Positions 1,796 through 52,100 of a stretch of 64,000 nt of DNA are shown piece by piece. The stretch comes from Lentisphaerota bacterium (lineage in GTDB: Bacteria; Verrucomicrobiota; Kiritimatiellia; UBA8416; VGWJ01): positions 6,078 through 70,077 of the forward strand of contig VGWJ01000008.1 of NCBI GenBank assembly GCA_016873635.1. The letters run 5' to 3'. The notes under the pieces were generated by a model. That model saw nothing but the letters and a program-made list of their open reading frames with translations. It had not been told where the DNA came from and ran no database searches. Positions within the stretch are counted from its first letter, which is position 1; every line of letters starts with the position of its first letter. Made by a program: the position numbers and the translations under genes.

Positions 1796-1840
1796 GGGTG
1801 ACACTTCCGACAATAGGTCCCCGAGAAGGGGGTCGAGGGA

Positions 1841-3670
1841 GTGTTACCGATGGCAACGAAGCGCAAGGGAAAGAGCGGCGGGACGGGGTCGCCGCATCGG
1901 GAGGCGCGCCCGTTCGCTCTGAAGCAGCGGGCCGTCAAGTTGTGCTTGCAGGAGGGGTATCCGGCGGAGATGGTGGCGCAGGAGTTGGGGGTCGGCCAGA
2001 GCACGCTTAACCTTTGGTGCAGGCGGTATCGCGAGCAGGGCGAGGCCGGACTGCAGGGCGTGCGGAGAGGCAAGGGCACGGTCCAAGTCAGCCCCGCCGC
2101 CAAGCAGAAGGCCGTTGAACTCAAGCGACAAAACCCCACGTTCGGAACGAAGCGCATTGCCGCGTTGCTGCGGCGGATGTTCTTCCTGCAAGCCGGGCCG
2201 GAGACGGTGCGCCGTGCGCTGCACGAACAGAGTCTGATCGAGAAGCCCAAGGCCAAGCCGAAGAGGAATCCGGCGAAGCCGCGGTTCTTCGAGCGCAGCA
2301 AGCCCAACCAGATGTGGCAGGCGGACATCTTCTCGTTCCGTCTGGGCGGCCGGGCCGCCTACCTCATCGGCTACGTGGACGACTACTCCCGCTATGTCAC
2401 CGGACTGGAGCTGTTCCGGTCGCAGACCGCGGAACACGTGTTGGAGGTTTACCGGCAGGCGGTGGCGGCGTACGGCGTGCCCAAGGAGATGCTGACGGAC
2501 AACGGGCGGCAGTACACCAACTGGCGAGGCAAGACGCGCTTCGAGTCGGAACTGAGCAAGGACCGCATCCAGCACATCAAGAGCCGTCCGCACCATCCCA
2601 TGACACTGGGCAAGATCGAACGGTTGTGGAAGACGATCTGGGGGGAATTCCTCTCTCGGGCGCAGTTCGACAGCTTCGAGGAGGCGCGGGAGCGGGTACG
2701 GTTGTGGATCCAGTACTACAACTACAGACGGCCGCACCAAGGCATTGGCGGCTTGTGTCCGGCGGATCGCTTCTTCGAGATTCAGACCCCGTTGCGCAAG
2801 GTGCTGGAGCAGGGCGTGGCGGAGAACGTGCTGGAGCAGGCGCTGCGCGGCAAGCCGCAGGCGCCGTTCTATCTGGTGGGACGGGTGGGCGAGCAGTCGG
2901 TGGTGATCCGAGCGGAAAAGGGCAAGGTGCGGATGTTGCTGGAGGGGCAGGCGCCGGAGGAGTCCAAGGAGTTGGTGTACAAGGTGGAGGGTGGCCATGG
3001 AAACGCAGGAGGGCGCGGCGCGGAAATCTCCACGCCGGAAAGCCCCGCGACACGACGTGAAAACGAAGTGCGAGGCGGTGTTAGCGGTCTGGTCGGAACG
3101 GCGGCGGCCAGCGGAGATCTGCCGGGAGTTGGGCATCCACGGGGCGGCGCTGAGCGCTTGGCAGAACCGGGCGTTGGAGGGCATACTGCAAGCGCTGGCG
3201 CCGCCGCCGGCACGGGCGCAGAAACCCTTGGCGCTGAGTCCGCGGCTGGAGCGGCGCTTGGCGCGCCGAATGGCCCTGAGCGCGGCCAGGGCGGGGCGCG
3301 TCCAACAGCGTCTGAAGGCGGTGGAGAGGAACGCGACGGCGCCGGAGCAACTGAAGGAGTAGACCATGTACAACCCCTCGCCGCGGGAGCAGGCCCGGCA
3401 GCGGGCGGAGATGATCCTGAAGGTCCGCGGCGGACAGATCACGGCGCAGGAAGCCGCGCGGGGCTTGGGGATCAGTCGCAAGACGTACTACAAGTGGGAG
3501 CAGCGGGGACTGGCGGCGATGCTGGACGGGCTTTGCGAGCGCAGCTCGGGCCGGCCGGCTTCGCGGCCCGATGGGGAGAAGGAGAGTCTGCAAACGACCG
3601 TGGGACAGCTTCAGATGGAACTGAAGGAACAGGAGCAGCGGCAGCAGATCCGGAATCTGCTGAAGGCTGA
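1841..3670 (+). CDS. IS481-family DDE transposase (N-terminal HTH + rve integrase core); native C-terminus/stop apparently lost, read-through low-complexity tail
   Basis: QMWQADIFSF...YLIGYVDDYSRYV...TDNGRQYTN...HPMTLGKIERLW...YNYRRPHQ is a typical rve DDE core. The 609-aa ORF continues past ~3000 as a Gly/Ala/Arg-rich tail overlapping the next element's ORFs. Confidence 0.8.
   Translation: MLPMATKRKGKSGGTGSPHREARPFALKQRAVKLCLQEGYPAEMVAQELGVGQSTLNLWCRRYREQGEAGLQGVRRGKGTVQVSPAAKQKAVELKRQNPTFGTKRIAALLRRMFFLQAGPETVRRALHEQSLIEKPKAKPKRNPAKPRFFERSKPNQMWQADIFSFRLGGRAAYLIGYVDDYSRYVTGLELFRSQTAEHVLEVYRQAVAAYGVPKEMLTDNGRQYTNWRGKTRFESELSKDRIQHIKSRPHHPMTLGKIERLWKTIWGEFLSRAQFDSFEEARERVRLWIQYYNYRRPHQGIGGLCPADRFFEIQTPLRKVLEQGVAENVLEQALRGKPQAPFYLVGRVGEQSVVIRAEKGKVRMLLEGQAPEESKELVYKVEGGHGNAGGRGAEISTPESPATRRENEVRGGVSGLVGTAAASGDLPGVGHPRGGAERLAEPGVGGHTASAGAAAGTGAETLGAESAAGAALGAPNGPERGQGGARPTASEGGGEERDGAGATEGVDHVQPLAAGAGPAAGGDDPEGPRRTDHGAGSRAGLGDQSQDVLQVGAAGTGGDAGRALRAQLGPAGFAARWGEGESANDRGTASDGTEGTGAAAADPESAEG
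2991..3362 (+). CDS. IS3-OrfA-like HTH transposase accessory protein
   Basis: Small ORF with HTH (AEICRELGIHGAALSAWQNR). Stop lies 4 nt before the next ORF start. Confidence 0.55.
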   Translation: MAMETQEGAARKSPRRKAPRHDVKTKCEAVLAVWSERRRPAEICRELGIHGAALSAWQNRALEGILQALAPPPARAQKPLALSPRLERRLARRMALSAARAGRVQQRLKAVERNATAPEQLKE

Positions 3671-3689
3671 CGGGGGGAAAAAAGGCTGA
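3366..3689 (+). CDS. HTH transposase accessory protein (second)
   Basis: HTH ITAQEAARGLGISRKTYYKWEQRG with a coiled-coil tail. Tightly spaced with flanking ORFs. Confidence 0.55.
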   Translation: MYNPSPREQARQRAEMILKVRGGQITAQEAARGLGISRKTYYKWEQRGLAAMLDGLCERSSGRPASRPDGEKESLQTTVGQLQMELKEQEQRQQIRNLLKADGGKKG

Positions 3690-3693
3690 AGGC

Positions 3694-4746
3694 GTGGCCA
3701 TGATACTGCAACACCTAGAGCAGCGGCGAGCGGCGGAGGGGCTTTCCTATCGGGCGCTGTGCGCCCGGGAAGGAATCGCCTATGCCAGCCTGATGCGCTG
3801 GAAGAGCCGGCTGACCGATGGGGCGACACTCATCGGCCAGCCCGGCCCCAAGAAGGTGGAAGCGTTGGACCTGGCGGCGTTGCGGGCGCAGATCGCTGCG
3901 TTACGGCACGGCCGAAAGCGGACTGAAGGCATCGGAGCGTTATACGGCCAATACCGGGAGAAGATCGCGCGCCGCGATCTGCGGCAGATGGTGACGGAGC
4001 AGCGGCAGCAGAAGAACGCCGAACGCAACCGGGTTTACCACCAGGTGATCTGGAAAATGCCCCGCCTGATCTGGGCGATGGACGATACAGAATATCAACC
4101 GGACCCCGCCTATCCGAAAGCCTACTTGCACAACGTGCAGGACGTGAGCTCGCGGTACAAGTTCGAGCCACTGGTCGGGATGAGGTTGGCGCACGGGGAG
4201 GAGATCGCCGCGCATCTGAACGAGCTGTTCGAAGCACACGGCCCGCCGCTGTTCATCAAACGGGACAACGGAAAGAACCTCAACCATGCCATCGTGGAAC
4301 AGCTGTTCGAAGCCTTCATGGTCATACCGATCAACAGTCCCTGCTACTATCCGCAATACAACGGCGGGATCGAGGTCGCCCAGCGCGAAATCAAAGCGTG
4401 GCTCTCACAGCGCCCGCCGATGCCCTCCGCGTTCCTGGCCATCCAGGCGGACCTGGACGTCCACGCGCTCAACCACCGTCCCCGCTCTTGCCTGGCCAAC
4501 CGCACACCGTGTCAGATGTTCCTGTCGGGTCAGGATCTCGCCCGAACCTTCAACCGCAGAAAACGAAAGGAGGTCTACGACTGGATCGCACAGAAAACGA
4601 TCGAACTGACGCAGCAACGATGCTATGACGATGACGCTGCGTGGCGCCTGGCAGTGGAAAGGTGGTTACTCGACAACGGCTTTATCGCCTTGTCACAAAC
4701 TGGAAAAGTGTCACCCTATTTCCTCGAAAAACGGTCTCACCATTAG
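3694..4746 (+). CDS. DDE transposase/integrase (rve core, IS481-like) of the second element
   Basis: N-terminal HTH (LSYRALCAREGIAYASLMRWK), then WAMDDTEY...VQDVSSRY...IKRDNGKNLNH...YYPQYNGGIEVAQREIK (D, D, E motif). The 3' end overlaps the candidate right IR. Confidence 0.8.
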   Translation: MAMILQHLEQRRAAEGLSYRALCAREGIAYASLMRWKSRLTDGATLIGQPGPKKVEALDLAALRAQIAALRHGRKRTEGIGALYGQYREKIARRDLRQMVTEQRQQKNAERNRVYHQVIWKMPRLIWAMDDTEYQPDPAYPKAYLHNVQDVSSRYKFEPLVGMRLAHGEEIAAHLNELFEAHGPPLFIKRDNGKNLNHAIVEQLFEAFMVIPINSPCYYPQYNGGIEVAQREIKAWLSQRPPMPSAFLAIQADLDVHALNHRPRSCLANRTPCQMFLSGQDLARTFNRRKRKEVYDWIAQKTIELTQQRCYDDDAAWRLAVERWLLDNGFIALSQTGKVSPYFLEKRSHH

Positions 4747-19225: not shown

Positions 19226-19444
19226 CCGGACTCCCAAATGAGGCGAGGTAAATAGCACGCTTCCGCCGCGCGACGCAAGCGCTCGTTCGCCGGGAACCGG
19301 CATTCCATGCCGCGTCGCCGCTGACAACTGATCAGTCGCGCCGGATCCGTGTCGCTTGTCGGCCTCGGCGCGCCCCTTCACCTTCCACCCGCCACCCTCC
19401 ACCCTGCACCCGGCACGCTTTCTTGCGTCTATTCCGGCGGCGGC

Positions 19445-19473
19445 GTTGACTTCTCCCGCGCGCGACGCCATAC
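19445..19473 (+). promoter_or_regulatory. putative sigma70-type promoter (TTGACT -17 bp- CATACT) ending 8 nt before the ATG, so a possibly leaderless mRNA
   Basis: ttgacttctcccgcgcgcgacgccatact read directly upstream of ATG 19481. Confidence 0.35.
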
Positions 19474-19480
19474 TGGCCGC

Positions 19481-20116
19481 ATGTCGATGTTCGGCGTCGA
19501 AAGATTCGACCGGCCGCGCCGCGCGCCGCGGCTGCTCGTCATCCTGCTCGCGCTCACGTCCCTCCCCGTCGCCGGACTGTGCCTGCTGCTCGGCGGACGC
19601 CCGCAGCCGGCCGAACCGCCCGCCGAAGGACCCCCGTCGCTGGCGGAACCGCTGCGGCCGGAGCCGGCCTCCTTCAAGCCGAACTCGTCCGTTCCGCGCC
19701 GCCCGGAGGGCGCAACCTGCGGATCGATCGACCCGGACTCGTTCTCCGCCGGACGCGACCTGGTCTATGTGGACGACCCGCGCGCGTGGTGGGAAAGCGA
19801 CAGCGACGTCGGCGACGACGAATGCGATCACAGCGTGCACCGGGCCGCGAAACGCCCGCTGCTCAGGCTGATCGAACTGGTCAGCCGCGAAGGCGCAACC
19901 CTGAAGGTCCAGGACGCCTACCGGCCCTCGGGCATCCACAACTCCGGATCGCTCCACAAGGAAGGCCGCGCCGTGGACGTGACGTGCGACGACATGCCCC
20001 TTGAGAAGCTGGCCAAGCTGTGCTGGGCGGCGGGATTCGACTGGGTCCTCTACGAGTCGGATCCCCGCAAGGGACCGCACGTCCACTGCTCCGTGAAGCG
20101 CGACCGCGCGGAGTGA
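19481..20116 (+). CDS. bacterial Hedgehog N-terminal ('Hedge') domain homologue: signal-anchor + Pro-rich stalk + LAS-type zinc-peptidase-like Hh-N domain
   Basis: C-terminal 110 aa align to vertebrate Shh-N: window SLHKEGRAVDVTCDD...LAKLCWAAGFDWVLYESD...HVHCSVKRD against Shh SLHYEGRAVDITTSD...LARLAVEAGFDWVYYESK..HIHCSVKAE. The zinc ligands (H, D, H) and the catalytic-type Glu are conserved. Upstream CDHSVHRAAKRPLLRLIELV matches RCKDKLNALAISV. N-terminus MSMFGVERFDRPRRAPRLLVILLALTSLPVAGLCLLL is a TM/signal segment. Confidence 0.8.
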   Translation: MSMFGVERFDRPRRAPRLLVILLALTSLPVAGLCLLLGGRPQPAEPPAEGPPSLAEPLRPEPASFKPNSSVPRRPEGATCGSIDPDSFSAGRDLVYVDDPRAWWESDSDVGDDECDHSVHRAAKRPLLRLIELVSREGATLKVQDAYRPSGIHNSGSLHKEGRAVDVTCDDMPLEKLAKLCWAAGFDWVLYESDPRKGPHVHCSVKRDRAE

Positions 20117-21229: not shown

Positions 21230-22450
21230 ATGCGGCTCCGCATCATGAACAGGACGTGCGACAAATCCGCTCCGCTCCAGGCTCCCTGCCGCGGCGGCGC
21301 GCCGGCCGGCGGGGACGCCGGCGCGGAAACCGGCCACATCGCGTGGTTCCGCGACATGGTGCAGCACTGCTACGACTACGCCGCCGCGGAGCACGCCCGG
21401 GGCACGAAGATCGTCGGGATCATGTGCGAATACACGCCCCGCGAGATCATCATGGCCGCGGGCGCCATCCCCGTGTGCCTGTGCGGCGGGTCCGAGAAAA
21501 TGGTGGCGCCGGCCGAACAGCACCTGCCCGCCAACCTCTGCCCGCTGATCAAATCGACCTTCGGCTACAGCGTGCGGAAGGCCAACCCCTTCCTGGAGAT
21601 GAGCGATTTCCTGGTGGCCGAGACCACCTGCGACGGCAAGAAGAAGATGTACGAGATGCTGGCCGAGAGCCACCCCATGCACGTGCTCGAGCTTCCGCAG
21701 AAACCCGACGATCCCGATGCCCTGTCGCACTGGGTGCGCGAAGTCCACAAGCTGAAGACGGCCGTCGCAACCCGCACGGGCGCGGCCGTCACCGACGACG
21801 CGCTGCGCCGCGCCATAGCGCTCATGAACCGCGAGCGACAACTGAAGCGCGACCTCGCGGCGCTGATGAAAGCCGACGACCCGCCCCTGACCGGCCGCGA
21901 GCTGCTGGACATGAAAAGCCTGATCGCCTGCCTCCCCGACGATATGCGGCAGCTCGAGCGCGCCGTCGCGGAACTTCCCGGACGCGTCGTCCCCTCCCGG
22001 AACCGGCGCGCGCGCGTGATGCTCACCGGCGTGCCCATCCCCCACGGCGCCGAACGCGTAATGGACATAATCGAGAACGCCGGCGGGCTGGTCGTGTGCC
22101 AGGAGAACTGCACGGGGCTGAAGCCGGTTCTCGACGACGTGGACGAAAACCATCCCGATCCGCTGCGCGCGATCGCCGAGAAGTACTTCCACCTGCCGTG
22201 TTCCGTCATGACGCCCAACGACCGGCGCCTGGACGTTCTGCGCCGCCTGGCGGCGGAATACCGGCCGGACTGCGTGGTCGAGCTGGTGTGGCAGGCCTGC
22301 CTGACCTATGACGTGGAATCCGCGCGCGTCCGGCGCCTCGCGGAGAATGAGCTCCGTCTGCCCTATCTGAAGATCGAGACGGACTACTCGCCGTCGGACA
22401 CCGCGCGCATAGCCACGCGGGTGCAGGCCATGTTCGAAACGCTGGGGTGA
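21230..22450 (+). CDS. 2-hydroxyacyl-CoA dehydratase family protein (HgdB/BcrB/BadD-like component)
   Basis: Family-typical Cys placement (CLCGG, TTCDGKKK). Similarity runs throughout to the dehydratase/benzoyl-CoA reductase subunit family. True start may be the internal Met at ~21356. Confidence 0.7.
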   Translation: MRLRIMNRTCDKSAPLQAPCRGGAPAGGDAGAETGHIAWFRDMVQHCYDYAAAEHARGTKIVGIMCEYTPREIIMAAGAIPVCLCGGSEKMVAPAEQHLPANLCPLIKSTFGYSVRKANPFLEMSDFLVAETTCDGKKKMYEMLAESHPMHVLELPQKPDDPDALSHWVREVHKLKTAVATRTGAAVTDDALRRAIALMNRERQLKRDLAALMKADDPPLTGRELLDMKSLIACLPDDMRQLERAVAELPGRVVPSRNRRARVMLTGVPIPHGAERVMDIIENAGGLVVCQENCTGLKPVLDDVDENHPDPLRAIAEKYFHLPCSVMTPNDRRLDVLRRLAAEYRPDCVVELVWQACLTYDVESARVRRLAENELRLPYLKIETDYSPSDTARIATRVQAMFETLG

Positions 22451-22454
22451 ACGG

Positions 22455-23231
22455 ATGCTGGCCGCGGGAATAGACGCCGGATCGCGCGCCGTGAAAGCGG
22501 CGATCGTCGAGGCCGCGACGCTGAAGCTGCTCGCGACCGCTATCGCCGACCAGGGCGTCGATCAGGAAGCCATCGCCGGGGCCGTTTTTGACGAAGCGCT
22601 GGACGGGGCCGGGGCTTCGCGCCGCGACGTTGTCCGCGCGGTGGCCACCGGCTACGGGCGGGACGCGGTGGGCGTGGCGGCAGTCACCGTCACCGAGATC
22701 ACCTGCCATGCCCGGGGTGTTTTTCACGCGGCGCCGGGGGCGCGGACGGTGATTGACATAGGCGGCCAGGACAGCAAACTGATGCGACTGAACGGAGACG
22801 GCCGGGTGCGCGATTTCAGCATGAACGATCGCTGCGCCGCCGGAACGGGGCGCTTCCTTGAAGTCGTGGCGGCCCGCCTCGGGGTGGGGCTGCACGAGCT
22901 CGGAGGGCTGGCCGCCCGTTCGGCGAATCCGGCGGCCATCAGCAGCATGTGCGTGGTCTTCGCCGAAACCGAAATCATAGGCCTGCTCGCGGGCGGAGCG
23001 CCGCGGGAGGATATTGCCGCCGGCGTGCAGTCGGCCATCGCCACGCGCGTGGCCTCGATGGCCGGCCGCCGGATCGAGGAGCCCGTCGTCTTCACGGGCG
23101 GCGTGGCGCTGGTGCCGGGCATGCGCGAGGCCCTGGGCGTCGCGCTGGGACGGGAGGTTTCCGTCGCCGGCAGACCCCAGTTTACGGGCGCGCTGGGCGC
23201 GGCCCTTTTGGCGGCCGGAGGATGTGTGTGA
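22455..23231 (+). CDS. CoA-substrate-specific enzyme activase (BadF/BadG/BcrA/BcrD/HgdC ATPase family)
   Basis: GIDAGSRAVKAAIV actin-like ATPase N-terminus. MNDRCAAGTG cluster-bridging Cys motif. Starts 5 nt after the upstream stop. Confidence 0.8.
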   Translation: MLAAGIDAGSRAVKAAIVEAATLKLLATAIADQGVDQEAIAGAVFDEALDGAGASRRDVVRAVATGYGRDAVGVAAVTVTEITCHARGVFHAAPGARTVIDIGGQDSKLMRLNGDGRVRDFSMNDRCAAGTGRFLEVVAARLGVGLHELGGLAARSANPAAISSMCVVFAETEIIGLLAGGAPREDIAAGVQSAIATRVASMAGRRIEEPVVFTGGVALVPGMREALGVALGREVSVAGRPQFTGALGAALLAAGGCV

Positions 23232-23306: not shown

Positions 23307-23403
23307 TGGCGGGAGTGAGTGGGAATCGAACCCAACCGGGGCCGGTCAAAGCCCCACACTGGATTTGAAGTCCAGGAGGCCCACCAGGTACCTGTTCACT
23401 CCC
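23307..23403 (-). tRNA. selC: tRNA-Sec (selC), anticodon UCA
   Basis: Reverse complement GGGAGTGA...CTGGA-CTTCAAA-TCCAG...GGGGC-tttgacc-GGCCCC...TTCGATT...TCACTCCC-G-CCA. It has an 8-bp acceptor stem, discriminator G and an encoded CCA. The 5-bp anticodon stem carries a 7-nt loop with U33 and UCA. The variable arm is long. 97 nt. Adjacent to selA. Confidence 0.85.
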
Positions 23404-23458: not shown

Positions 23459-24853
23459 GTGAGCAATGACAAGAACAGACTGCTGCGCCGCCTGCCCGGC
23501 GTGGACGCCATGCTGGAACGCGCCGCCGCCGCGCCGCTCGCCGGGCGCTTCGGAAGGCGGCCGCTGACGGACGCGCTGCGCGAAGCGCTGGACGCGCTGC
23601 GCGCGAGGATTATGGCCGGCGCCGGGCCCGCCGACGCGGAGTTTGAACCCGATGCCGTGATCGAGGCGGCCGCGCGCCGGCTGGCGGAAGCCGAGCAGCC
23701 CCGCCTGCGCCGGGCCGTCAATGCCACGGGCATCCTGCTGCACACCGGCCTGGGACGCGCGCCCATGCCGCCCGCCGCCCGCGAGGCGCTCGCCCGCGTC
23801 GCCGGGCCCTGCAACGTGCAGCTCGCGCTGGATACGGGCGCGCGCATCCGGCGGGAAGAGACTATCCGCGACGTCGTGCGCGAGGTGACCGGCGCGGAGG
23901 ACTGCCTGCTGGTCAACAACAACGCCGGGGCCACCCTGCTGGCGCTCGCCGCCCTGTGCCGCGGACGGGAGGCGGTCGTGTCGCGCGGCGAACTCATCGA
24001 AATCGGCGGCTCGTTCCGCCTGCCCGACGTCATGGAGCAGAGCGGCGCGATCATGCGCGAGGTGGGCACCACCAACAAGACCCACGTCCGCGACTACGAG
24101 GCCGCGGTCGGCCCGAACACGGGCCTGCTGATGAAGGTGCACCGCAGCAATTTCAGCATCGTGGGCTTCGCCAAGGAGCTCGGCATCGCCGAGATCGCGG
24201 CCGTCGGCAAACGCCACGGCGTGCTCGTGGCCGATGACCTCGGCTGCGGCGCCCTGATCGGCCTGGAGCGCTACGGGCTGCCGCACGAGACCACCATGCG
24301 CGAAAGCCTGGAAGCCGGCGCCGACATCGTGCTAGCCAGCACCGACAAGCTCATCGGCGGCCCGCAGGGCGGCCTCATCGCGGGCCGCGCCGAGGTCATC
24401 GCCCGCGTGCGCTCGCACCCCCTCTACCGCGCGCTGCGCGTGTGCAAGCTCACGCTCGGCGCCGTGGAAGCCACCATGCGCCTGTTCAGGGCGCCGGACC
24501 TGCTCCCGGCGCGCCATCCCCTGTACGCCATGATCGCGCGCACGGCGGATGAGGTGGCGCGCCAGGCCGGCGAGGTCGCCGCCGCCGTTCGCGCCAGGCG
24601 CCCGGGATGGAGCGTGCAGGCCCGCGCGGACGAGGCGCGCCTGGGCGGCGGCTCGCTGCCGGACTCGACGCTGCCTTCCAGCGTGGTGGCGATAACCGCG
24701 CCGGACCGCCCGGCGGAGAACCTTGCCGCCGCGTTTCGCGCCGCCGCCGTGCCCGTGGTGCCCCGCGTTCATGAGGACGCGGTGCTGGCGGATATGCGCA
24801 CCGTGCTGCCGGAGGAGGTGGCGGACGTGCTGGCGGCCGTGGACGGCATCTGA
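23459..24853 (+). CDS. selA: L-seryl-tRNA(Sec) selenium transferase
   Basis: N-terminus LLRRLPGVDAML (SelA LPSVDxLL). PLP-Lys region STDKLIGGPQGG (E. coli GDKLLGGPQAG). Confidence 0.9.
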   Translation: MSNDKNRLLRRLPGVDAMLERAAAAPLAGRFGRRPLTDALREALDALRARIMAGAGPADAEFEPDAVIEAAARRLAEAEQPRLRRAVNATGILLHTGLGRAPMPPAAREALARVAGPCNVQLALDTGARIRREETIRDVVREVTGAEDCLLVNNNAGATLLALAALCRGREAVVSRGELIEIGGSFRLPDVMEQSGAIMREVGTTNKTHVRDYEAAVGPNTGLLMKVHRSNFSIVGFAKELGIAEIAAVGKRHGVLVADDLGCGALIGLERYGLPHETTMRESLEAGADIVLASTDKLIGGPQGGLIAGRAEVIARVRSHPLYRALRVCKLTLGAVEATMRLFRAPDLLPARHPLYAMIARTADEVARQAGEVAAAVRARRPGWSVQARADEARLGGGSLPDSTLPSSVVAITAPDRPAENLAAAFRAAAVPVVPRVHEDAVLADMRTVLPEEVADVLAAVDGI

Positions 24854-24946: not shown

Positions 24947-26923
24947 ATGCGGAGTTGCCCGACAACCGCCAAAGGCGCGGCGCAGGCCGCCGGCCAGGTC
25001 ATCAGCCTCACCGTCGGCACGGCCGGCCACATCGATCACGGCAAGACGCAGCTCGTGCGGATGCTTACCGGCTGCGACACGGACCGGCTGCCCGAGGAAA
25101 AGGCGCGCGGCATGACCATCGACCTCGGTTTCGCCGCCTGCGTGCTTCCCAGCAACCGTCGCGTCGGCATCGTGGACGTGCCGGGCCACGAGCGCTTCAT
25201 CCACAACATGGTCGCCGGCGCCGCCGGAATGGACGCGGTGCTGCTGGTCGTGGCCGCCGACGACGGCGTCATGCCCCAGACCGTCGAGCACCTCCAGATC
25301 ATCAACCTGCTCGGCGTGACCGCCGGCATGACCGCCATCACCAAGATCGATCTCGTTCCGCCGGAGCGCGTGGCTGAAGTCGCCGACCAGGTGCGCGCGC
25401 TCGCCGCCGGAAGCTTTCTCGCGCAGGCGCCCATCGTGCCCGTATCGTCCAAGACGGGCGCGGGATACGACGCCTTCTACGAGGCCTTCACCGCCTTGGT
25501 CGACCGCACGGCCGAGCGCGACGCCGGCGGCCCCTTCCGCCTGAACGTGGAGCGCTCCTTCGTGCTGGAGGGCATCGGGACGGTCGTCTCCGGCATTCCC
25601 CGCTCCGGGACCGTGCGCACGGGCGACGAGCTGGAGCTTCTGCCCGCGGGCGCGCTGAAACGCGTGCGCGGCATCCAGGTCTACGGACAAAGCGCCGGGC
25701 AGGGCCGCGCCGGCGAATGCGTCGCGCTGCGTCTCGCGGACATGCGCCGCGACGAGGCCGGGCGCGGCGCCGTTCTCGCCGCGCCGGGGCATTTCCGTCC
25801 GTCGCGCTTCCTCAGCGCCCGCTTCCGGCTTCTGTCTTCCGTGGGCGATCCGATCCGGCCGCGCACCGCGGTCCGCCTGCACCTGGGCACGTCCGACGTG
25901 CCCGGGCACCTCGTCCTGCCCGAGCTGACGTCCCTGCCGCCGGGCGGCGAGAGCTACGTCCAGATCCAGCTGCAGGCCCCCGTGGTGGCGGCGCTGGGCG
26001 ACCCGTTCGTGGTGCGAATGCTCAGCCCGGTCCGGACGATCGGCGGCGGATACGTGGTCGCCGCCGACGCCGAGAAGATGCGGCGCGCGCGCGGCGACTG
26101 GGCGCAGGAGCGCGCCGAGCGCGACGCGGCGTTCCGCGACCCGGCGACGGCGCTGGCCTACGTGCTCGAACACGCCGGATGCGCACCCCTGCGCGTCGCG
26201 GAGCTGTCGCGCCGGGCCGTGCTGACCGAAGACGCCGCGGCCGCCCGCCTGCGCGAGCTGGTCGAGGCGGGAAAGGCGGCGGCGCTTCCCGGCGAACGCT
26301 TCGTCGCGGCGGAAGCCCTGACGGCCGCTTCCAAGGCGATCGCCGACCGCCTGTCCGCGCTGCACGACGCTTCGCCCCTCGCCGTCGGCTTCGCGAAGAA
26401 GGCCGTCGTCGCGGACGTGGAAATGGATCGCGCCTTGCTTGACCGCGCCATCGAGGGGCTCGCGCGCGACGGCCGCGTGCAGGTCACCGACGCCGGGCTG
26501 CGCCTGGCCGAGCGCGCCGCGAAGCTGAACCCCGCCCAGGCCGCGCTGGCGGCGCGCATCGTGGCCAGGCTGGCGGAGACGGGTTTCCATACGCCGCGGT
26601 CCGACGAGCTTCCGGGCGTCGTGGGCGCGCCCGCCTCGCTGGTGACGCCCGTCCTGGAGCACCTCGTGCAGTCCGGAACGGTCGTGCGCGTCGACGAACG
26701 CATTCTTCTGCACCGCGACGCCGCGGACGATGCCGGAAAGCGCATCGCCCGCCACATACGCGCCCACGGCGCGATCGACGCGGGCGGATGCAAGGAACTG
26801 CTGGACACGACGCGGAAGTACGCGATACCCATACTTGAGTATTTCGACGCCCGCGGCCTCACCCGCCGCGTCGGCGACAAGAGAGTGCTGCGAGAAGAGC
26901 CGAAGCAGACTGATAGCGTTTAG
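24947..26923 (+). CDS. selB: selenocysteine-specific translation elongation factor
   Basis: G-domain GTAGHIDHGKT, DVPGHERF, TKIDL. C-terminal winged-helix domains. 658 aa. Start codon uncertain. Confidence 0.9.
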   Translation: MRSCPTTAKGAAQAAGQVISLTVGTAGHIDHGKTQLVRMLTGCDTDRLPEEKARGMTIDLGFAACVLPSNRRVGIVDVPGHERFIHNMVAGAAGMDAVLLVVAADDGVMPQTVEHLQIINLLGVTAGMTAITKIDLVPPERVAEVADQVRALAAGSFLAQAPIVPVSSKTGAGYDAFYEAFTALVDRTAERDAGGPFRLNVERSFVLEGIGTVVSGIPRSGTVRTGDELELLPAGALKRVRGIQVYGQSAGQGRAGECVALRLADMRRDEAGRGAVLAAPGHFRPSRFLSARFRLLSSVGDPIRPRTAVRLHLGTSDVPGHLVLPELTSLPPGGESYVQIQLQAPVVAALGDPFVVRMLSPVRTIGGGYVVAADAEKMRRARGDWAQERAERDAAFRDPATALAYVLEHAGCAPLRVAELSRRAVLTEDAAAARLRELVEAGKAAALPGERFVAAEALTAASKAIADRLSALHDASPLAVGFAKKAVVADVEMDRALLDRAIEGLARDGRVQVTDAGLRLAERAAKLNPAQAALAARIVARLAETGFHTPRSDELPGVVGAPASLVTPVLEHLVQSGTVVRVDERILLHRDAADDAGKRIARHIRAHGAIDAGGCKELLDTTRKYAIPILEYFDARGLTRRVGDKRVLREEPKQTDSV

Positions 26924-26979
26924 CTTTTGCCCGGAAAATGTTCCACCTGACACCCGACACCTGAAACCTGAAACCCGAC

Positions 26980-28614
26980 ATGGACGCCAGGGAAAAACGC
27001 AGGCGCGTGATGGCGCGCTCGATCAAGCTGGGGCACTGCGTGTGCGACCCGCGCAAGCCGTGCCCGTGTCCGCTCTTCAAGGAAAAGAACATCTGCACCT
27101 GCGCCGGAGAGCGCGTGCCTCCGGAGAGCGAAGGCCGCCCCGTGCGCCTCACCGCGTTCGTGCGCAGCGCCGGCTGCGCCAGCAAGATCAGCCAGAAGGA
27201 TCTGCACCAGGTCCTGGCCATGCTGCCCGTCGTGCGGGACCCCCGGCTGGTGGTGGGCATGGCCACCGCCGACGACGCCGGCGTCTTCCGGCTGCGTCCC
27301 GACCTCACCATCGTGCAGACCGTGGACGTCTTCACGCCCGGCGTGGACGACCCGCGCCTCTTCGGCCGCATCGCGGCCTGCAATTCGCTGAGCGACGTCT
27401 ATGCCATGGGCGGCCGGCCGGTCACGGCGCTGTCCGTGATCGGGTTTCCGATCTACGCGCTGCCGGCCGAGGCCATGGCCGAAATCCTGCGCGGCGGCAT
27501 GGAAGTGCTCGCCGAAGCGGGCGTGGTGCTCCTGGGCGGGCACAGCATCAACGACGAGGAAGTCAAGTTCGGGTTTGCCGTGACGGGCCTGGTGACGGAC
27601 GCGGAGCTGGTGACCAACGCCGGCGCCAGGCCCGGCGACCTGCTCGTTCTCACCAAGCCGCTGGGCACGGGTATCGTGTCGCTCGCCAACCAGCTCGGCA
27701 AGGCGTCGCCCGAAAGCCTTGACGCGATTGCCGCCTCGATGTCCACCCTCAACCGGGCGGCAGCCGAGTGCATGACGCGCCACGGCGCGACCGCCTGCAC
27801 GGATGTCACCGGCTTCGGGTTCCTGGGACACCTGTGCCGGGTGGTGCGCGAGAGCCGCGTCACGGCCGAAATCTGGGCCGAAGCGCTGCCCTTCTTCCCC
27901 GGCGCCGTGGAGTACGCCCGGCAGGGCATGTTCTCCGGCGCCAACGAACGCAACGCGGAATACAGCGCCGCCGTGACGCGCTTCGACGACGGCATCGGCG
28001 AGGAGATCAAGGCCCTGCTCTTCGACGCCCAGACCTCGGGCGGGCTGCTGATTGCCGTGCCCGGGGAGCGGGCCAAAGCCATGCTCGCGGACATGCGCGC
28101 GTCAGGCGTGAACGACGCGGTCGCCGTCGGCGAGATCCTGGATGCGTCCGCGGGCGCGATCAGCGTCGTCGGGCAACGGCCCTCCCGCGCGCGCGCGAAT
28201 CACACCGGGCCGGCGCGGCAGACCACCGGCCATGCGGACGCCACGGCCGCCACTTCAAAGGAGGAACCCATGCAAGATAAGGACAGCGGCGCCGCAAGCG
28301 CCGGCCGGGAGGAATGCTGCGCGCACGGTTCGGGCGCGCCGGCGCAGGCCCTCAAGATGTTCCAGGATTTCATGGGCACGGCTTTGCAGCCGGGCGCCGT
28401 GGACGTCGTGACCAAGGAACTGATGGCCGTGGCGCTGGGCCTGGCCGTCAACTGCGAACCGTGCTCCCGCATCCACGTCCGCAAGGCCCGCTCCATGGGC
28501 ATCGGCAACGCGGAGCTCGAAGAGGCCGCCGCGCTGGCCGTGGCCTTCGCCGGCTGCCGCGCCTTGATGCTCTGGAGCCGGATGAAGAAGGAGGTCCTGG
28601 AAAGCGGAATCTGA
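26980..28614 (+). CDS. selD: selenide, water dikinase (SelD, Cys-type) with Cys-rich N-terminal extension, fused in-frame to a C-terminal AhpD-like (carboxymuconolactone decarboxylase family) domain
   Basis: SelD core: SAGCASKI (catalytic Cys loop), SDVYAMGG, and AIR-synthase-like domains to ~28180. N-terminus HCVCDPRKPCPCPLFKEKNICTC has six Cys in CxC pairs. After a low-complexity linker, an AhpD-like domain 28270-28614 with NCEPCSRIH (CxxCxxxH) is preceded by AAAGGAGGAA and an in-frame ATG. Confidence 0.85.
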   Translation: MDAREKRRRVMARSIKLGHCVCDPRKPCPCPLFKEKNICTCAGERVPPESEGRPVRLTAFVRSAGCASKISQKDLHQVLAMLPVVRDPRLVVGMATADDAGVFRLRPDLTIVQTVDVFTPGVDDPRLFGRIAACNSLSDVYAMGGRPVTALSVIGFPIYALPAEAMAEILRGGMEVLAEAGVVLLGGHSINDEEVKFGFAVTGLVTDAELVTNAGARPGDLLVLTKPLGTGIVSLANQLGKASPESLDAIAASMSTLNRAAAECMTRHGATACTDVTGFGFLGHLCRVVRESRVTAEIWAEALPFFPGAVEYARQGMFSGANERNAEYSAAVTRFDDGIGEEIKALLFDAQTSGGLLIAVPGERAKAMLADMRASGVNDAVAVGEILDASAGAISVVGQRPSRARANHTGPARQTTGHADATAATSKEEPMQDKDSGAASAGREECCAHGSGAPAQALKMFQDFMGTALQPGAVDVVTKELMAVALGLAVNCEPCSRIHVRKARSMGIGNAELEEAAALAVAFAGCRALMLWSRMKKEVLESGI

Positions 28615-28707
28615 ACAGATTGCTCGGTTGTCTTCGTTGCCTTCTGTTCAGGTTCCCCTCTCGTCTCCTCCGCGTCTCCGTGCTGAATCCCTCTCTCACT
28701 TCCTGCG

Positions 28708-30078
28708 CTACGCCGCCGGCGGCCTGGGCAGTCCCTCCATCGAAGCCAGTGAGCGCGTCAGCATCTCTTCCGGCAGCGCGAAATCCGAGAGTTTCCCGTC
28801 CAGGTAGGCCTGGTAGCCCGTGAGGTCCATCAGGCCGTGGCCCGACCAGTTGAACAGGATGACTCTCTTCTTGCCTTCCTCGCGCGCTTTTTCCGCTTCC
28901 CTGATCGCCATCGCGATGGCGTGCGAAGTCTCGGGCGCGGGTATGAAGCCCTCGGTGTGGGCGAACTTCATGGCCGCCCCGTAGCATTCCATCTGGTGCA
29001 GCGCCTGCGCCTCGATCAATCCCTCGCGCAGCACGTGGCTCACCAGCGGGGCCATGCCGTGGTAGCGCAGCCCGCCCGCGTGGATCGGCGGCGGAACGAA
29101 CGTGTGGCCGAGGCTGTACATGGCCAGCAGCGGCGTCATCATCGCCACGTCGCCCGAATCGTAGACGTAGGGCGCCCGCGTCAGGGTCGGGCAAGCCGCC
29201 GGCTCGACGGCGATCACGCGCACGTTCCGGCCGGCCATCTTGTCGCACACGAACGGGAAGCTCAGCCCGGCGAAGTTGGATCCGCCGCCCGCGCAACCGA
29301 TGACCACGTCGGGATAGAGACCGAGCATCTCCATCTGTTTCTTCGCCTCCAGGCCGATGATCGTCTGGTGCATGAGCACGTGGTTGAGCACGCTGCCCAG
29401 CGCGTAGCGCGTATTCTTGCCCGTGACCGCCGCCTCGATGGCTTCGCTTATGGCGATGCCCAGGCTGCCCGGCGTGTCGGGGTCTTTTTCGAGAATCGCG
29501 CGACCGGCGTTGGTTTCCCGGCTGGGGCTCGCCACGCACTCCGCTCCCCAGGTGCGCATCATGATCTTCCGGAACGGCTTCTGATCGAAGCTGATCCGGA
29601 CCATGTACACCTTGCATTCCAGCCCGAGCAGTTTGCAGCCGAACGCCAGGGCGCTGCCCCACTGCCCGGCGCCGGTCTCGGTCGTGAGGCGCTTGATGCC
29701 GAACTCGCGGTTGTAGTAGGCCTGGGCCACCGCCGTGTTGGGCTTGTGGCTGCCCGGCGGCGACACGCCCTCGTTCTTGTAAAGGATGATGGCCGGCGTC
29801 TTCAGGGCCTGTTCCAGCCGGCGCGCGCGGTAGAGGGGCGAAGGCCGCCACAGCTTCAGGATGCCGAGGATTTCCTCGGGAATGTCGATCCAGCGCCTGG
29901 TGCTGACCTCCTGCTCGATCAGGTTCATCGGGAATACCGGCGCCAGCGCGTCCGGCCCGATCGGCTTGCCGTTCTTGTCAACGGGCGGCGGCACAGGCTT
30001 CTTCAGGTCCGCCTGAATGTTGTACCACTGCCGCGGAATCTCGTCGTCCTTCAATACGACCTTGACCAGTTCACTCAT
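28708..30078 (-). CDS. trpB: tryptophan synthase beta-like PLP-dependent enzyme (TrpB2 type)
   Basis: Start MSELVKVV with GAGGAG RBS. PLP-Lys motif [14 protein letters not shown]. About 457 aa, typical TrpB2 length. Confidence 0.8.
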
Positions 30079-49196: not shown

Positions 49197-52100
49197 CTAC
49201 AGTCCGTTCATCCCCTTGAATACTATCCGATACATCCGGGCGGGCTCAATCTCGGAATCCCAGTCCACGTAGCCGGCCGTTTCGTCTTCGGCGATCACCG
49301 TGGCGATCGGCGTCCAGGCATCCGCCGTCGGCAGCGACTGGGGCGTCGCGCACTGCACTTCGTAGATCCCGCCAACCATGGCGTTCCACGAGATCAGGGC
49401 CGGACTGTTGATCGAGATGCCCAGCACGATCTCGTTCACGGTCAACGCGGGGAGCCTGACGCGCCACGTTCCGTCGCCCGACGGAACCAGGCCCACCGGC
49501 CAGCTCCCGTCGCCCGTGGCCACGCGGTACTCGCCCGCCGGCAGCAGCTCGAAGACGTACACGCCGTTGTTCGGCGTGTAGCGCTGCATCAGGTTGGTGC
49601 CTACCGCGCCCAGCAGGTAGACGTCGCCGGCGTCCAGGTAGGTCCCCGAGATCTCGCCGCCCTGCATGATGGCCACGTCGTCGATGTACCATCCGCCGGC
49701 GCGGCCCTGCCCGTCGGAGGTCAGCATGAACTTCAGGTAGACGTTGGTTTCCGTCACGGTGATAGGGGCGATCACGCGCCGCCATTCGCCCGTGGTGTTC
49801 GCGAAGCTGTTGCGCCGCGACACGATGGTGATCGGCGGCCGCGGCGGCGCGGTTCCGCCCGTGCGCTGCAGGATATCGGCCTGCGTGCCGGGACGCACCA
49901 TCTCGACCGATACCCAGTCGTTGTCGTCCGCCAGGTCAAGCCACTCGTGGAACACCAGGAACCAGCGGTTCGTGTTGGGTATGGGCGAGGAATCCGGCAG
50001 CCACCTGTAGGTGTAGCTCGGAGGCACGTCGAAACTCAGCAGCGGCGAGTAGAGATCCATGATCGCGTTGTTCTCGTACGAGCCGTCCAGGTCGGTCCCG
50101 TAGCACCACCGTCCCGAGTGGGCTTTCCGCGGCGCCATGTTGTCGCCCGTTCCCGCGGGGGAGCCGAGCTCCCATTCGTCGCGCGGATCGTCGGGCGGGA
50201 AAGCCCCGAACCGGTGCCACCACAGCTCGATCGACTGCGCATATATGCCCTGGAACCCGGTCTCGATCCACTCGTTCGGCGGCGTGGGCGGCGGCGTGCG
50301 GCGGCCCTCTCCGGGATGCCCGGCGTAGATGGCCTCAAAAAACTCGGCGTTAATGCCCGTGTGCGGGTGATAGGCCGACTCGAAGTCCGCGATGAAGTTG
50401 AGCCGCATTGGCCCAGCTCCGGGAACATACGTCATCCCGCCCAGCTTCCGGTAGTTGTACGGAACCTTCTCCGGGGCCGTGGTGTTCATGGCCGCGCTGG
50501 CGATGACCAGGCCGTTGGCGCGCGGGTCCCGTCCCGCGGCCGGTCCGCCCAGCGCCATTTCCTTGCCGTCCTCAACCCAGTCGCCGTCCGTGTCCTCGGC
50601 CGTCGGCAGCGTCCCGCAGCGGCCGCCGAACATCAGCATGACCGGGGGGCCGCCGTAGTCGTCGCCCACGAACGGGTAGGCCCGGGCCACCGGCGACGGG
50701 CGCAGGTTGAAGGGATGCGCCATTTCGCCGCTGGGTTCCGTCAGGATCCACCGCCATCCGTCGGAAACCACCGCGCTGATCTCGTTGGTGTCGCCCACGT
50801 AGGCCACGCCGGCTTCCTGCAGGATCCAGGTGTCGTTGAAATAGCGCTTGCCGTCGGTCCCGCCGAACACGGCCGGAATCCCGCCGGCATATGTTCCGAA
50901 GGCCATGCCTCCGCGCGGCGGCGGCTTGTCGATGGTGTAGACCGGCGGAATGCGACCGGTGTCGGCGAAGACGTCGATCTGGGTCCAGTCGAAGCCGTCC
51001 CAGTGCCACAGGTCGTTGAGCGGCTTGTTGTTCCGGTCGAACCCGCCGAATACGAGCATGCCCGTGGCCCCTTCCGCCATGCCGTGGCCCCAGCGCGCCG
51101 GCGGCCGGTGCAGGGGGTAGATCTGGGTCCAGCTAAGCGCGGTCGCCGAAACCCAGGTGTCGTCCAGGACGCGGTTGCCGTCCACGCCGCCGAACAGGGT
51201 CCACAGCTCGTTGAAGTTGTCGTATTCCATGGCCGCGGACTTGCGCCGGTGCGGCGTGGGCAGAGGGAAGAGCGGAACCCAGATCTCGCTGGCCGGCCGC
51301 CACCAGCGCGGCTCCGCGATGGTGATGCGCAGCCGCGCGGAGTCGTGCCAGAAGCTCAGGACGCCGGGCGAATTGGTCAGGCCCACGAAAACGAAGCCCA
51401 TGTTTCCGCCCAGCTCCCATTCCGCGGGGGGCGGCGCGCTGCCGTCCACGGCTTCGAACATCTCGCGCACGGCCGCGGTCACGTCGATGAACACCGCATC
51501 GCCGACTTCCGCGGGCGGAATGGTCACCACGACGGACGTCGTGTTGAATACCCATTCCGGATCGAGCGGCTTGGTGATGTACCGCACGCACGGCGGGTTG
51601 GTGGCGTAGTCGGTCGGCGAGGTCAGCAGCGCATGCTCCTGCGGCTCCTCCGCGGACACGCCCTTCTCGTCCCGGCTGAGTTCGCCGACGACCAGAACTT
51701 CGAACTCGTTGGTGCGCCGCGTCGCGGCCGTCAGTTGCAGGACCGCGATGACGCTGTCCGGCGAGGCGTAGTCGTACCGCGTATTCAGCACGGGGCCGAT
51801 GTTGACGCCGGTGTAGTAGACGTCGTTGGAGGCCGGACCGGCGGCGCCCAGCATGACGCGCTGATTCGCCGAGACCGGAATGATCGGCAGGGCCAGGCGG
51901 TTGGTCTGGTAGGCATCGGCCCGCGAGCCCCACTGGTAGACGATCTCGGTGGTGTCGTCGCGCGGAATGTAGTAGGGGTTGTAGTGCAATCTCACCGAGC
52001 CCCCCTGGTAGTCTTCCGCGTAGTCGTGCGGCAGCCCGCCCTCGTACGCGTATTTCGGGCCCAGCGTATCGTCCAGATGCCATCCCGTGATGAACGAGGT

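Follow-up and report, generated by a model that had tools for sequence, protein, structure and literature searches.

A conserved SelD-AhpD fusion with a putative internal translation start in the selenium gene cluster of a Lentisphaerota bacterium

A SelD protein with a C-terminal AhpD-like domain

The window analysed here, a stretch of 64,000 nucleotides from a Lentisphaerota bacterium (GenBank assembly GCA_016873635.1, contig VGWJ01000008.1, positions 6,078 to 70,077 of the forward strand), contains a gene in which selenophosphate synthetase (SelD) is joined in frame to a C-terminal AhpD-like domain of the carboxymuconolactone decarboxylase (CMD) type. The fusion is ancient and kept in frame, and the AhpD subfamily concerned is found almost exclusively as a part of SelD or in translational coupling with it. 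A ribosome-binding site and start codon conserved inside the gene strongly suggest that the subclade of the window additionally makes a free AhpD-like protein with a Cys-Cys (CC) pair. The best overall explanation, which we consider somewhat favoured, is a conserved three-part SelD with a CC-AhpD thiol module, made as two products and acting in selenium handling.

The single open reading frame (ORF) at 26980..28614 (+, window coordinates) starts with ATG, ends with TGA at 28612-28614 and encodes 544 amino acids (aa). The SelD part and the AhpD-like part share this frame with no stop codon between them, as a first reading from the sequence alone (the sequence-only reading) had described. An alignment of 106 homologues delimits an N-terminal domain with six invariant cysteines (aa 1-50, 26980..27129, +). 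It is followed by the SelD core (aa 56-397, 27145..28170, +; TIGR00476 and Foldseek) with the active-site loop GCASK. For aa 56-364, Pfam and NCBIfam comparisons gave AIRS and AIRS_C matches and a TIGR00476 score of 365.6 bits (cutoff 125); NF002098 scored 328 (NCBIfam cutoff 299). In Foldseek, the SelD model matched 2yye, 3u0o and 2zod (SelD from Aquifex and E. coli) with E-values of 1e-31 to 1e-36 and target-normalised TM values of 0.91-0.93. Cys66 and Lys69 of the loop, within SAGCASKISQK, are the counterparts of E. coli C17 and K20 and are invariant in the sequences compared (n = 106); the SelD part uses cysteine, not selenocysteine (Sec).

The linker reported earlier after the SelD core is real. 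It is hypervariable in the alignment and disordered in the AlphaFold model (aa 398-430, 28171..28269, +; pLDDT <50 across aa 405-452). At its end stands AAAGGAGGAA (28257-28266), whose Shine-Dalgarno (SD) core AAGGAGG (28258..28264, +) is separated by a 5-nucleotide (nt) spacer from an ATG at 28270..28272 (+), so that GGAG occupies positions -10..-7 of this ATG. The ATG lies in frame (28270-26980 = 1290 = 430x3) and encodes Met431, the putative start of a free AhpD-like protein of 114 aa. The sequence-only reading had pointed out both this SD and ATG and the CxxCxxxH motif NCEPCSRIH within the 114 aa (C492, C495, H499), and all are present as described. It had recognised the SelD and AhpD parts correctly and overlooked the N-terminal six-Cys domain and the vicinal pair Cys446-Cys447 (28315..28320, +; motif EECCAHGS), which lies in the disordered segment. 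The AhpD/CMD-like domain proper (aa 453-541, 28336..28602, +) is modelled as five helices with pLDDT 82-97. PF02627 matched aa 456-529 with 47-52 bits (47.4 and 52.4; cutoff 23), and TIGR00778 (cutoff 27.8) gave 30.8 when the 114-aa ORF was scored by itself and 27.7 over the full-length protein.

The fusion is old, widespread and kept in frame

The sequence-only reading had taken the gene for the product of a recent stop-codon loss. No missed stop codon or frameshift was found over the linker. An identical 544-aa protein is encoded by 10 contigs of independent assemblies (JGI 3300020084, Logan SRR7008010, SRR7979709), and the three places that were fetched differ by 0-1 nucleotides, none of them within the linker. 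A sequencing error or missed stop is ruled out because the exact protein, encoded by an identical ORF, recurs in independent assemblies.

A whole-protein search found PF00586, PF02769 and PF02627 together in >100 protein clusters at 55-71% identity, whose named holders comprise Phycisphaerae, Lentisphaerae, Verrucomicrobia and others. When metagenomes were scanned with the AhpD part alone as seed, SelD was located upstream in the same frame and without a stop codon at 68 of 80 loci. Among the 12 remaining loci, six contigs start inside or just before the AhpD domain, L099 is actually fused, L106 is frame-disrupted and three are fragmentary or match only distantly; the last, L156, is a true free-standing copy. 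The fusion is also present in GTDB representatives of Verrucomicrobiota, Planctomycetia and unclassified bacteria, and a genome-contig pattern scan, the output of which was dominated by generic SelD patterns, recovered five fused species representatives. Carriers include metagenome-assembled genomes (MAGs) of Verrucomicrobiota, Planctomycetota, Lentisphaerae and others. The CxxCxxxH motif was found at 84 of 86 loci; all 84 have CxxC, with no Sec variant (CxxU) of the fused domain and no homologue truncated at TGA among them.

Although the linker is hypervariable among these homologues, both in length and in sequence, the frame is always kept and free of stop codons, which indicates selection on the covalent linkage as such. 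What the family has in common is the fusion protein. A recent origin by stop-codon loss, or an assembly error joining two ordinary neighbouring genes, would be in keeping with the perfect SD and ATG at the junction, which resemble the relic of a separate gene, and with the split arrangement, coupled through ATGA, in one Myxococcota MAG (L163). The identical ORF in independent assemblies and the invariably in-frame layout across >100 clusters and most AhpD-seeded loci argue against it. The split form, moreover, is nested inside the fused subclade of the window, so that secondary fission is more likely. A recent joining is therefore extremely improbable, and the claim of the sequence-only reading on this point does not hold. 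The search for SelD-AhpD fusions in related genomes that it had proposed was positive. That the architecture and its conservation are as given here is close to certain.

Several observations count against the overall explanation. In the close relative L002 the N-terminal Cys domain is kept and the AhpD module has been lost. Likewise, the SelD of a Kiritimatiellae genome (L162, GCA_028718125.1) has the N-terminal Cys domain and has lost the AhpD domain; a short tail (L162 4150-4302, ending in KKCCCSLGSRGHHG) retains a cysteine cluster (CCC). The nearest free-standing homologue (P0132) adjoins a TonB-dependent receptor gene and not selD, so that adjacency to selD is not universal for the wider CC-AhpD family.

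With a free-standing AhpD as query, a word-indexed search matched 8 proteins. In a full-library profile search, at least 43 of the best 150 cluster representatives carry SelD sequence, by a rough classification that includes many fragments. The same search returned two long, secreted-looking proteins with six AhpD-like stretches each (P0134, 1161 aa; P0212, 852 aa). Free-standing AhpD-like proteins of ~100-135 aa with N-terminal CC motifs were also seen (P0148, P0211, P0217, P0218, P0228, P0274); in such proteins CC often occurs at the extreme C-terminus as well.

Some records give a misleading picture of single loci. The seemingly unfused P0110/L161 is best accounted for by homopolymer indels in a long-read MAG, and P0124 and P0125 are gene-caller truncations of fused ORFs. 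For P0124 and P0125 (L165, GCA_033549365.1), public calls give the internal AhpD ORF alone (114 or 129 aa), while the SelD portion of that open frame is left uncalled or is interrupted where the contig ends. Because gene calls sometimes report the internal ORF alone, the fusion architecture is under-annotated.

A conserved putative translation start inside the fused gene

The SD and ATG at the junction were compared across 31 non-redundant loci of the subclade of the window, which is coherent on a neighbour-joining tree of the SelD core. Within the hypervariable linker the internal ATG is ~94-100% conserved. In 30 of the 31 loci the nearest in-frame Met stands 4-11 codons (mostly 11) before the CC pair; in the window the distance from Met431 to the pair is 15 codons. 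Positions -10..-7 read G/G/A/G in 94/94/94/84% of the loci, as compared with ~40-50% for flanking positions. In 27 of 31 loci GGAG was found 5-13 nt upstream of the internal ATG, a feature shared by 2.9% of the remaining in-frame ATGs of these genes. The likely genes of the window contain 332 internal in-frame ATGs, and AAGGAG or AGGAGG precedes none of them except that at 28270.

The conservation acts on nucleotides rather than on residues. Codon -4 is AGG or CGG (Arg), CAG (Gln), AAG (Lys), GGG (Gly) or GAG (Glu), i.e. it encodes five different residues with xRG always kept. Codon -3 is GAG in 25 cases and GAA in one, at a GAG share of 54% elsewhere in the same genes, while the Glu two codons past the ATG is encoded by GAA 11 times and by GAG once. 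The RNA around the site is also start-like: in 30 loci the mean 40-nt folding energy was -3.4 to -3.7 kcal/mol at the ATG versus -8 to -13 in most segments elsewhere, and a dip in GC content coincides with this minimum. In the window, the SD and AUG are placed in the open top of a GC-rich hairpin.

The equivalent site is a gene start in copies that are not fused. In the Myxococcota locus L163, a separate 103-aa ahpD begins at the equivalent Met behind GAGGAG, and the TGA stop codon of selD overlaps its start as ATGA; the internal site thus works as a true start once the genes are split. The free-standing copy L156 starts at the equivalent Met behind GGAGG. At the start of selD itself, by comparison, an SD-like motif was seen in no more than 6 of 16 loci, and the selD ATG of the window lacks one and is directly preceded by a short direct repeat, cacccgacacctgaaacctgaaacccgac (26940-26979). 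No sigma-70-like promoter for the AhpD part was detected within 26700-28900, a negative result that is uninformative for this phylum.

From these comparisons, the internal start is probably functional in the subclade of the window. A second round of initiation at the conserved SD and ATG would yield, from one mRNA, the full-length enzyme (~58 kDa) and a free 114-aa CC-AhpD protein (~12 kDa). The proposal of the sequence-only reading that one locus could give both a fusion and a free AhpD-like protein has thereby gained comparative support from the conserved GGAG and ATG nucleotides, the RNA-structure minimum and the split gene in L163.

Other observations weigh against a general role of the short product, which is deduced from sequence conservation. 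An internal SD and start are missing from the sister subclade (22 loci) and from most of the deeper fused lineages, L005 and L147 (with an internal start) and L003 (with candidate sites) being exceptions; a free AhpD form is therefore not essential to the system. Use of SD sequences at annotated starts of the genome is moderate only. The GGAG enrichment corresponds to a binomial P of ~1e-37, in which loci are counted as independent though they are related. The fusion protein could accordingly be the sole product, with GGAG and ATG representing a relic, a protein motif where the domains meet, or an SD-like site at which pausing assists co-translational folding. Besides the sister subclade, which works without the internal start, this explanation can draw on the disputed proposal that SD-like sequences within genes slow ribosomes. 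It is nevertheless quite improbable, given that the residues at codon -4 vary and GAG is chosen over GAA 25 to 1 at codon -3, that the ATG keeps a fixed 6-nt spacing from GGAG, that the structure minimum and GC dip are centred on the ATG, and that the site is a real start in split and free-standing copies.

Selenium carriage or protection of SelD by the CC-AhpD module

The pair C446/C447 is at least 90% conserved in the alignment of homologues, and linkers of the sister subclade carry one to three CC motifs. In the AhpD-like domain, the catalytic signature E480-x11-C492-x2-C495-x3-H499 is intact and is accompanied by a conserved C526; C492 and C495 are invariant, and E480, H499 and C526 are at least 90% conserved. 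The nearest structures in a profile search were 3bey, 5dik, 1vke, 1p8c and 7y4r (E 1e-11 to 5e-8), most of them deposited with six chains. The best NCBIfam relatives were AhpD-type selenoproteins and AhpD domains fused to arsenic/selenium (As/Se)-type, i.e. metalloid, methyltransferases, at scores below the family cutoffs (NF041047, 34 vs 110; NF045649, 56 vs 380; NF041537, 44 vs 510).

AhpD-type CxxC domains are thiol-disulfide oxidoreductases, and selenium is bound by vicinal thiols as selenotrisulfides. In the Hg(II) reductase MerA, flexible vicinal cysteines tethered by a linker (the C-terminal Cys-Cys pair and NmerA) capture a soft metal or metalloid, which is then passed to a pair of redox-active cysteines; neither the enzyme nor the element is related to those considered here, and the likeness is an analogy only. 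From chemistry and by analogy, the CC pair and CxxC of the SelD-AhpD protein would bind selenium as selenotrisulfide or perselenide, the bound selenium would be reduced, and selenide would be handed to the mobile Cys66 loop of SelD, so that the toxic intermediate would never be free. In an alternative step, CC and CxxC would keep Cys66 reduced. SelD forms dimers, whereas small CMD proteins are hexamers as a rule; it may hence be speculated that free AhpD copies act as a shuttle or fill up an AhpD oligomer built on the two domains that the SelD dimer carries.

Free-standing proteins provide precedents for this principle. With its CxxC, bacterial thioredoxin reduces selenite, and the Trx-Se intermediates that arise are required for making selenoproteins (TrxA, PMC8538045), and the thiol peroxidase PRDX6 carries selenide to mammalian selenophosphate synthetase (PMC11327102). 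The principle proposed for the fused module is the one at work in both, with reactive cysteines that bind and reduce selenium and pass it on to selenophosphate synthetase. Both proteins are, however, general and lack a sequence relationship to the module described here, which is dedicated, being fused or coupled to SelD. The selenium-handling or SelD re-reduction step suggested by the sequence-only reading is plausible. Of these, capture and reduction of selenium with hand-over of selenide to SelD is the most economical; we regard a role of the CC and AhpD module as selenium carrier or reductase as a serious possibility, at somewhat less than even probability. Two considerations count against it: the classic role of the AhpD family is peroxide defence, and the binding or reduction of selenium by family members is deduced from chemistry and analogy.

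Protection or re-reduction of Cys66 is the main rival to selenium delivery. In that case the AhpD-like module would be an antioxidant or repair device, acting as peroxidase partner or disulfide reductase without carrying selenium. It would be compatible with the intact canonical E-x11-CxxCxxxH, with the alkylhydroperoxidase AhpD (5dik) among the closest solved relatives and with the Cys-type rather than Sec-type SelD. The near-invariant Cys-Cys on a disordered arm, present in up to 2-3 copies in one subclade, speaks against it, as does the CCC tail that outlasts the loss of the AhpD domain in L162. A pair that is multiplied, and kept after AhpD loss, is easier to reconcile with a ligand for soft metalloids than with peroxide chemistry. 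Among family relatives, moreover, the nearest are fused to As/Se-type methyltransferases, and the organisms appear to be anaerobic, judging from double-cubane reductase and ferredoxin neighbours. A purely antioxidant function is on balance rather unlikely.

The N-terminal six-cysteine domain

The N-terminal domain follows the motif C20xC22-x5-C28PC30-x8-C39xC41 and then AGE (sequence pattern HC-V-C-DPRKP-C-P-C-PLFKEKNI-C-T-C-AGE), and is modelled with pLDDT ~80-88 in the full AlphaFold prediction. Among 80 GTDB SelD loci sampled, it is restricted to the SelD lineage with the AhpD module; the other SelDs of this sample include Sec-type proteins, NifS-SelD fusions and plain Cys-type proteins. 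No Pfam match at E-values up to 10 and no PDB sequence match were obtained for the domain.

The domain might be a minimal module with a [4Fe-4S] cluster and disulfide, built from three CxC motifs and resembling the catalytic subunit of ferredoxin-thioredoxin reductase (FTR). Ferredoxin electrons would then be passed via this module to the AhpD/CC thiols, with the AhpD-like CxxC as the thioredoxin-like acceptor of an intramolecular iron-sulfur (Fe-S) relay. The N-terminal domain and the AhpD module occur together, and the spacing CPC-x8-CxC presumably matches that of the FTR catalytic subunit. The model of the domain gave five PDB matches in all in Foldseek, every one an FTR catalytic subunit, at non-significant values (E 6-9, probability 0.06, 24 columns). 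In one locus (L164), a free-standing AhpD of the same subfamily is encoded behind an FTR-like gene (PF02943) and a polyferredoxin gene: the polyferredoxin (425 aa with CCGCCCE, 1815-3092) is followed by a FeThRed_B protein (95 aa, 3185-3472) and the CC-AhpD protein P0122 (106 aa, 3501-3821), a trio that possibly forms a redox chain from ferredoxin via the FTR-like protein to AhpD. Set against this, the Foldseek matches are not significant, hhalign of the N-terminal domain with the FTR-like protein of L164 gave a probability of 5%, and sequence matches in Pfam and PDB are lacking. The spacing of the first CxC differs from FTR (x5 vs ~x13-16), and a zinc site is equally possible at the six cysteines. 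A relay of this kind is rather unlikely, and iron-sulfur electron input is to be taken as a lead, not as a finding.

Gene neighbourhood of the fusion

The fusion gene completes a sel cluster consisting of tRNA-Sec (selC, 23307..23403, -; ARAGORN), selA (23459..24853, +; PF03841, E-value 2e-124), selB (24947..26923, +; with GTP_EFTU, SelB beta-barrel and SelB winged-helix domains) and then the SelD-AhpD gene. The same sel gene order was found in L162, L173 and L174. Immediately upstream of tRNA-Sec are the genes for a double-cubane-cluster anaerobic reductase (21230..22450, +; NF040772, 423 bits vs cutoff 350) and for a BcrAD/BadFG-type ATPase, the presumed activase of this reductase (22455..23231, +; PF01869, 187 bits). 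The activase is 57% identical to that adjoining the fusion in L140. HGD-D and/or activase homologues flank the fusion in 12 other loci (L005, L089, L117, L119, L120, L126, L139, L140, L157, L163, L165 and L173), most of the fetched flanks being only 3-4 kb long. Double-cubane reductases thus appear to be recurrent neighbours of the SelD-AhpD type, and we tentatively associate them with the system. In a genome survey, 955 of 970 double-cubane proteins were encoded in SelD-containing genomes, with no explanation offered (Haft, bioRxiv 10.1101/2022.07.06.499078).

A functional coupling of Fe-S or double-cubane proteins to SelD-AhpD is rather unlikely. Unlikely too, in its entirety, is the picture of the locus as a self-contained anoxic machine for selenium activation. 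Low-potential electrons, supplied by ferredoxin via the N-terminal FTR-like module and/or by the adjacent ATP-driven double-cubane reductase, would reduce selenium bound at the CC arm and CxxC, selenide would be channelled to SelD, and the internal start would tune the ratio of tethered to free AhpD for a hetero-oligomer on the SelD dimer.

Further genes recur near the fusion. In the sister subclade without internal start, a 283-aa protein (20 loci; e.g. L126 3328-4176 and L140 3361-4209) and a 112-aa protein (14 loci; L140 4221-4556) are encoded just downstream, both lacking a Pfam or NCBIfam match. NapH-like Fer4_5 proteins occur near the fusion in L003, L122, L126, L140, L173 and L174. Elsewhere in the window, a 255-aa ORF (19349-20113, +) matches the Hedgehog N-terminal signalling domain (PF01085, E 4.6e-14), unusual for a bacterium, and a giant ORF of 4436 aa (49197-62507, -) has a third-position GC content of 0.90.

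Discussion

The delivery of selenide to bacterial selenophosphate synthetase is unsettled, and the candidates, NifS-like lyases, thioredoxin and rhodanese, are general ones. Described SelD fusions are Ndh-SelD and NifS-SelD (Zhang et al. 2008, PMC2398784; Mariotti et al. 2015, PMC4561486), and all SelD extensions detected in the latter study were N-terminal. What they share with the present protein is a SelD joined to a partner with a redox or selenium-mobilising role, which is read as coupling selenium supply to selenophosphate synthesis. In Ndh-SelD and NifS-SelD, however, the partner is large, N-terminal and a flavoprotein or pyridoxal phosphate (PLP) enzyme, whereas here a small C-terminal AhpD-like domain is combined with a CC arm, a 50-aa N-terminal Cys domain and an internal start. 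No Ndh- or NifS-like N-terminal domain was matched by Pfam in the 544-aa protein, and TIGR04369 scored 148.7 against a cutoff of 700. NifS-SelD proteins, in which C-terminal NifS sequence precedes a SelD with a GCACK loop, were found in the GTDB sample (L009, L022, L025, L045, L055, L070, L074, L076, L080). Such fusions are common in GTDB species representatives of several phyla, seemingly far more so than the two instances reported in 2015 suggest.

With the AhpD/CMD family (PF02627), represented by M. tuberculosis AhpD, P. aeruginosa AhpD (5dik), TM1620 (1p8c/1vke) and 3bey, the fused domain shares the helical CMD fold, CxxCxxxH, a Glu 12 positions before the first Cys and the small size. 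It differs in being tethered to SelD, in its disordered N-terminal Cys-Cys arm and in that no AhpC partner is encoded in the locus. AhpD-type selenoproteins and methyltransferase fusions (NF041047, GSU3128; NF045649, MduS; NF041537, ArsM/AhpD; PMC13188914) have the same fold and motif position and are tied to selenium and arsenic biology, but they contain CxxU with Sec, whereas the SelD-fused domain has CxxC and another fusion partner.

The dual-product arrangement also has counterparts among bacterial genes in general. ClpB, IF2 and CheA are the classic cases in which one gene gives two proteoforms. More widely, in-frame internal initiation, where an SD and start codon inside an ORF give a C-terminal proteoform beside the full-length protein, has been described (Meydan et al. 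2019, bioRxiv 10.1101/520783). In distinction from those cases, the evidence here is comparative, and the putative short form comprises a whole fused domain that is a separate gene in relatives. Full-text literature searches returned no description of a SelD-CMD/AhpD or other C-terminal SelD fusion, and database records label the fused proteins plainly as SelD. The components come from known families; their combination and the dual-product arrangement are undocumented in the literature searched.

That an internal ribosome-binding site is conserved within a fused gene in many genomes is of use to annotators, since records name these proteins just "SelD" and at times list the internal ORF by itself. 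Double-cubane reductases are now placed physically beside selenium-activation genes, which matches the genome-level link of Haft (2022). If the locus should indeed act as an anoxic selenium-activation machine, this would be the first physiological context for double-cubane proteins and would explain why they are almost confined to SelD genomes. For SelD itself, the CC-AhpD module has been conserved in three forms, namely fused, as a separate gene in translational coupling and, putatively, as a product of internal initiation, in parallel to the recent finding of PRDX6 as a selenide carrier in mammals. A SelD with its own conserved thiol module points to a dedicated, directly testable selenium partner that is absent from the textbook pathway.

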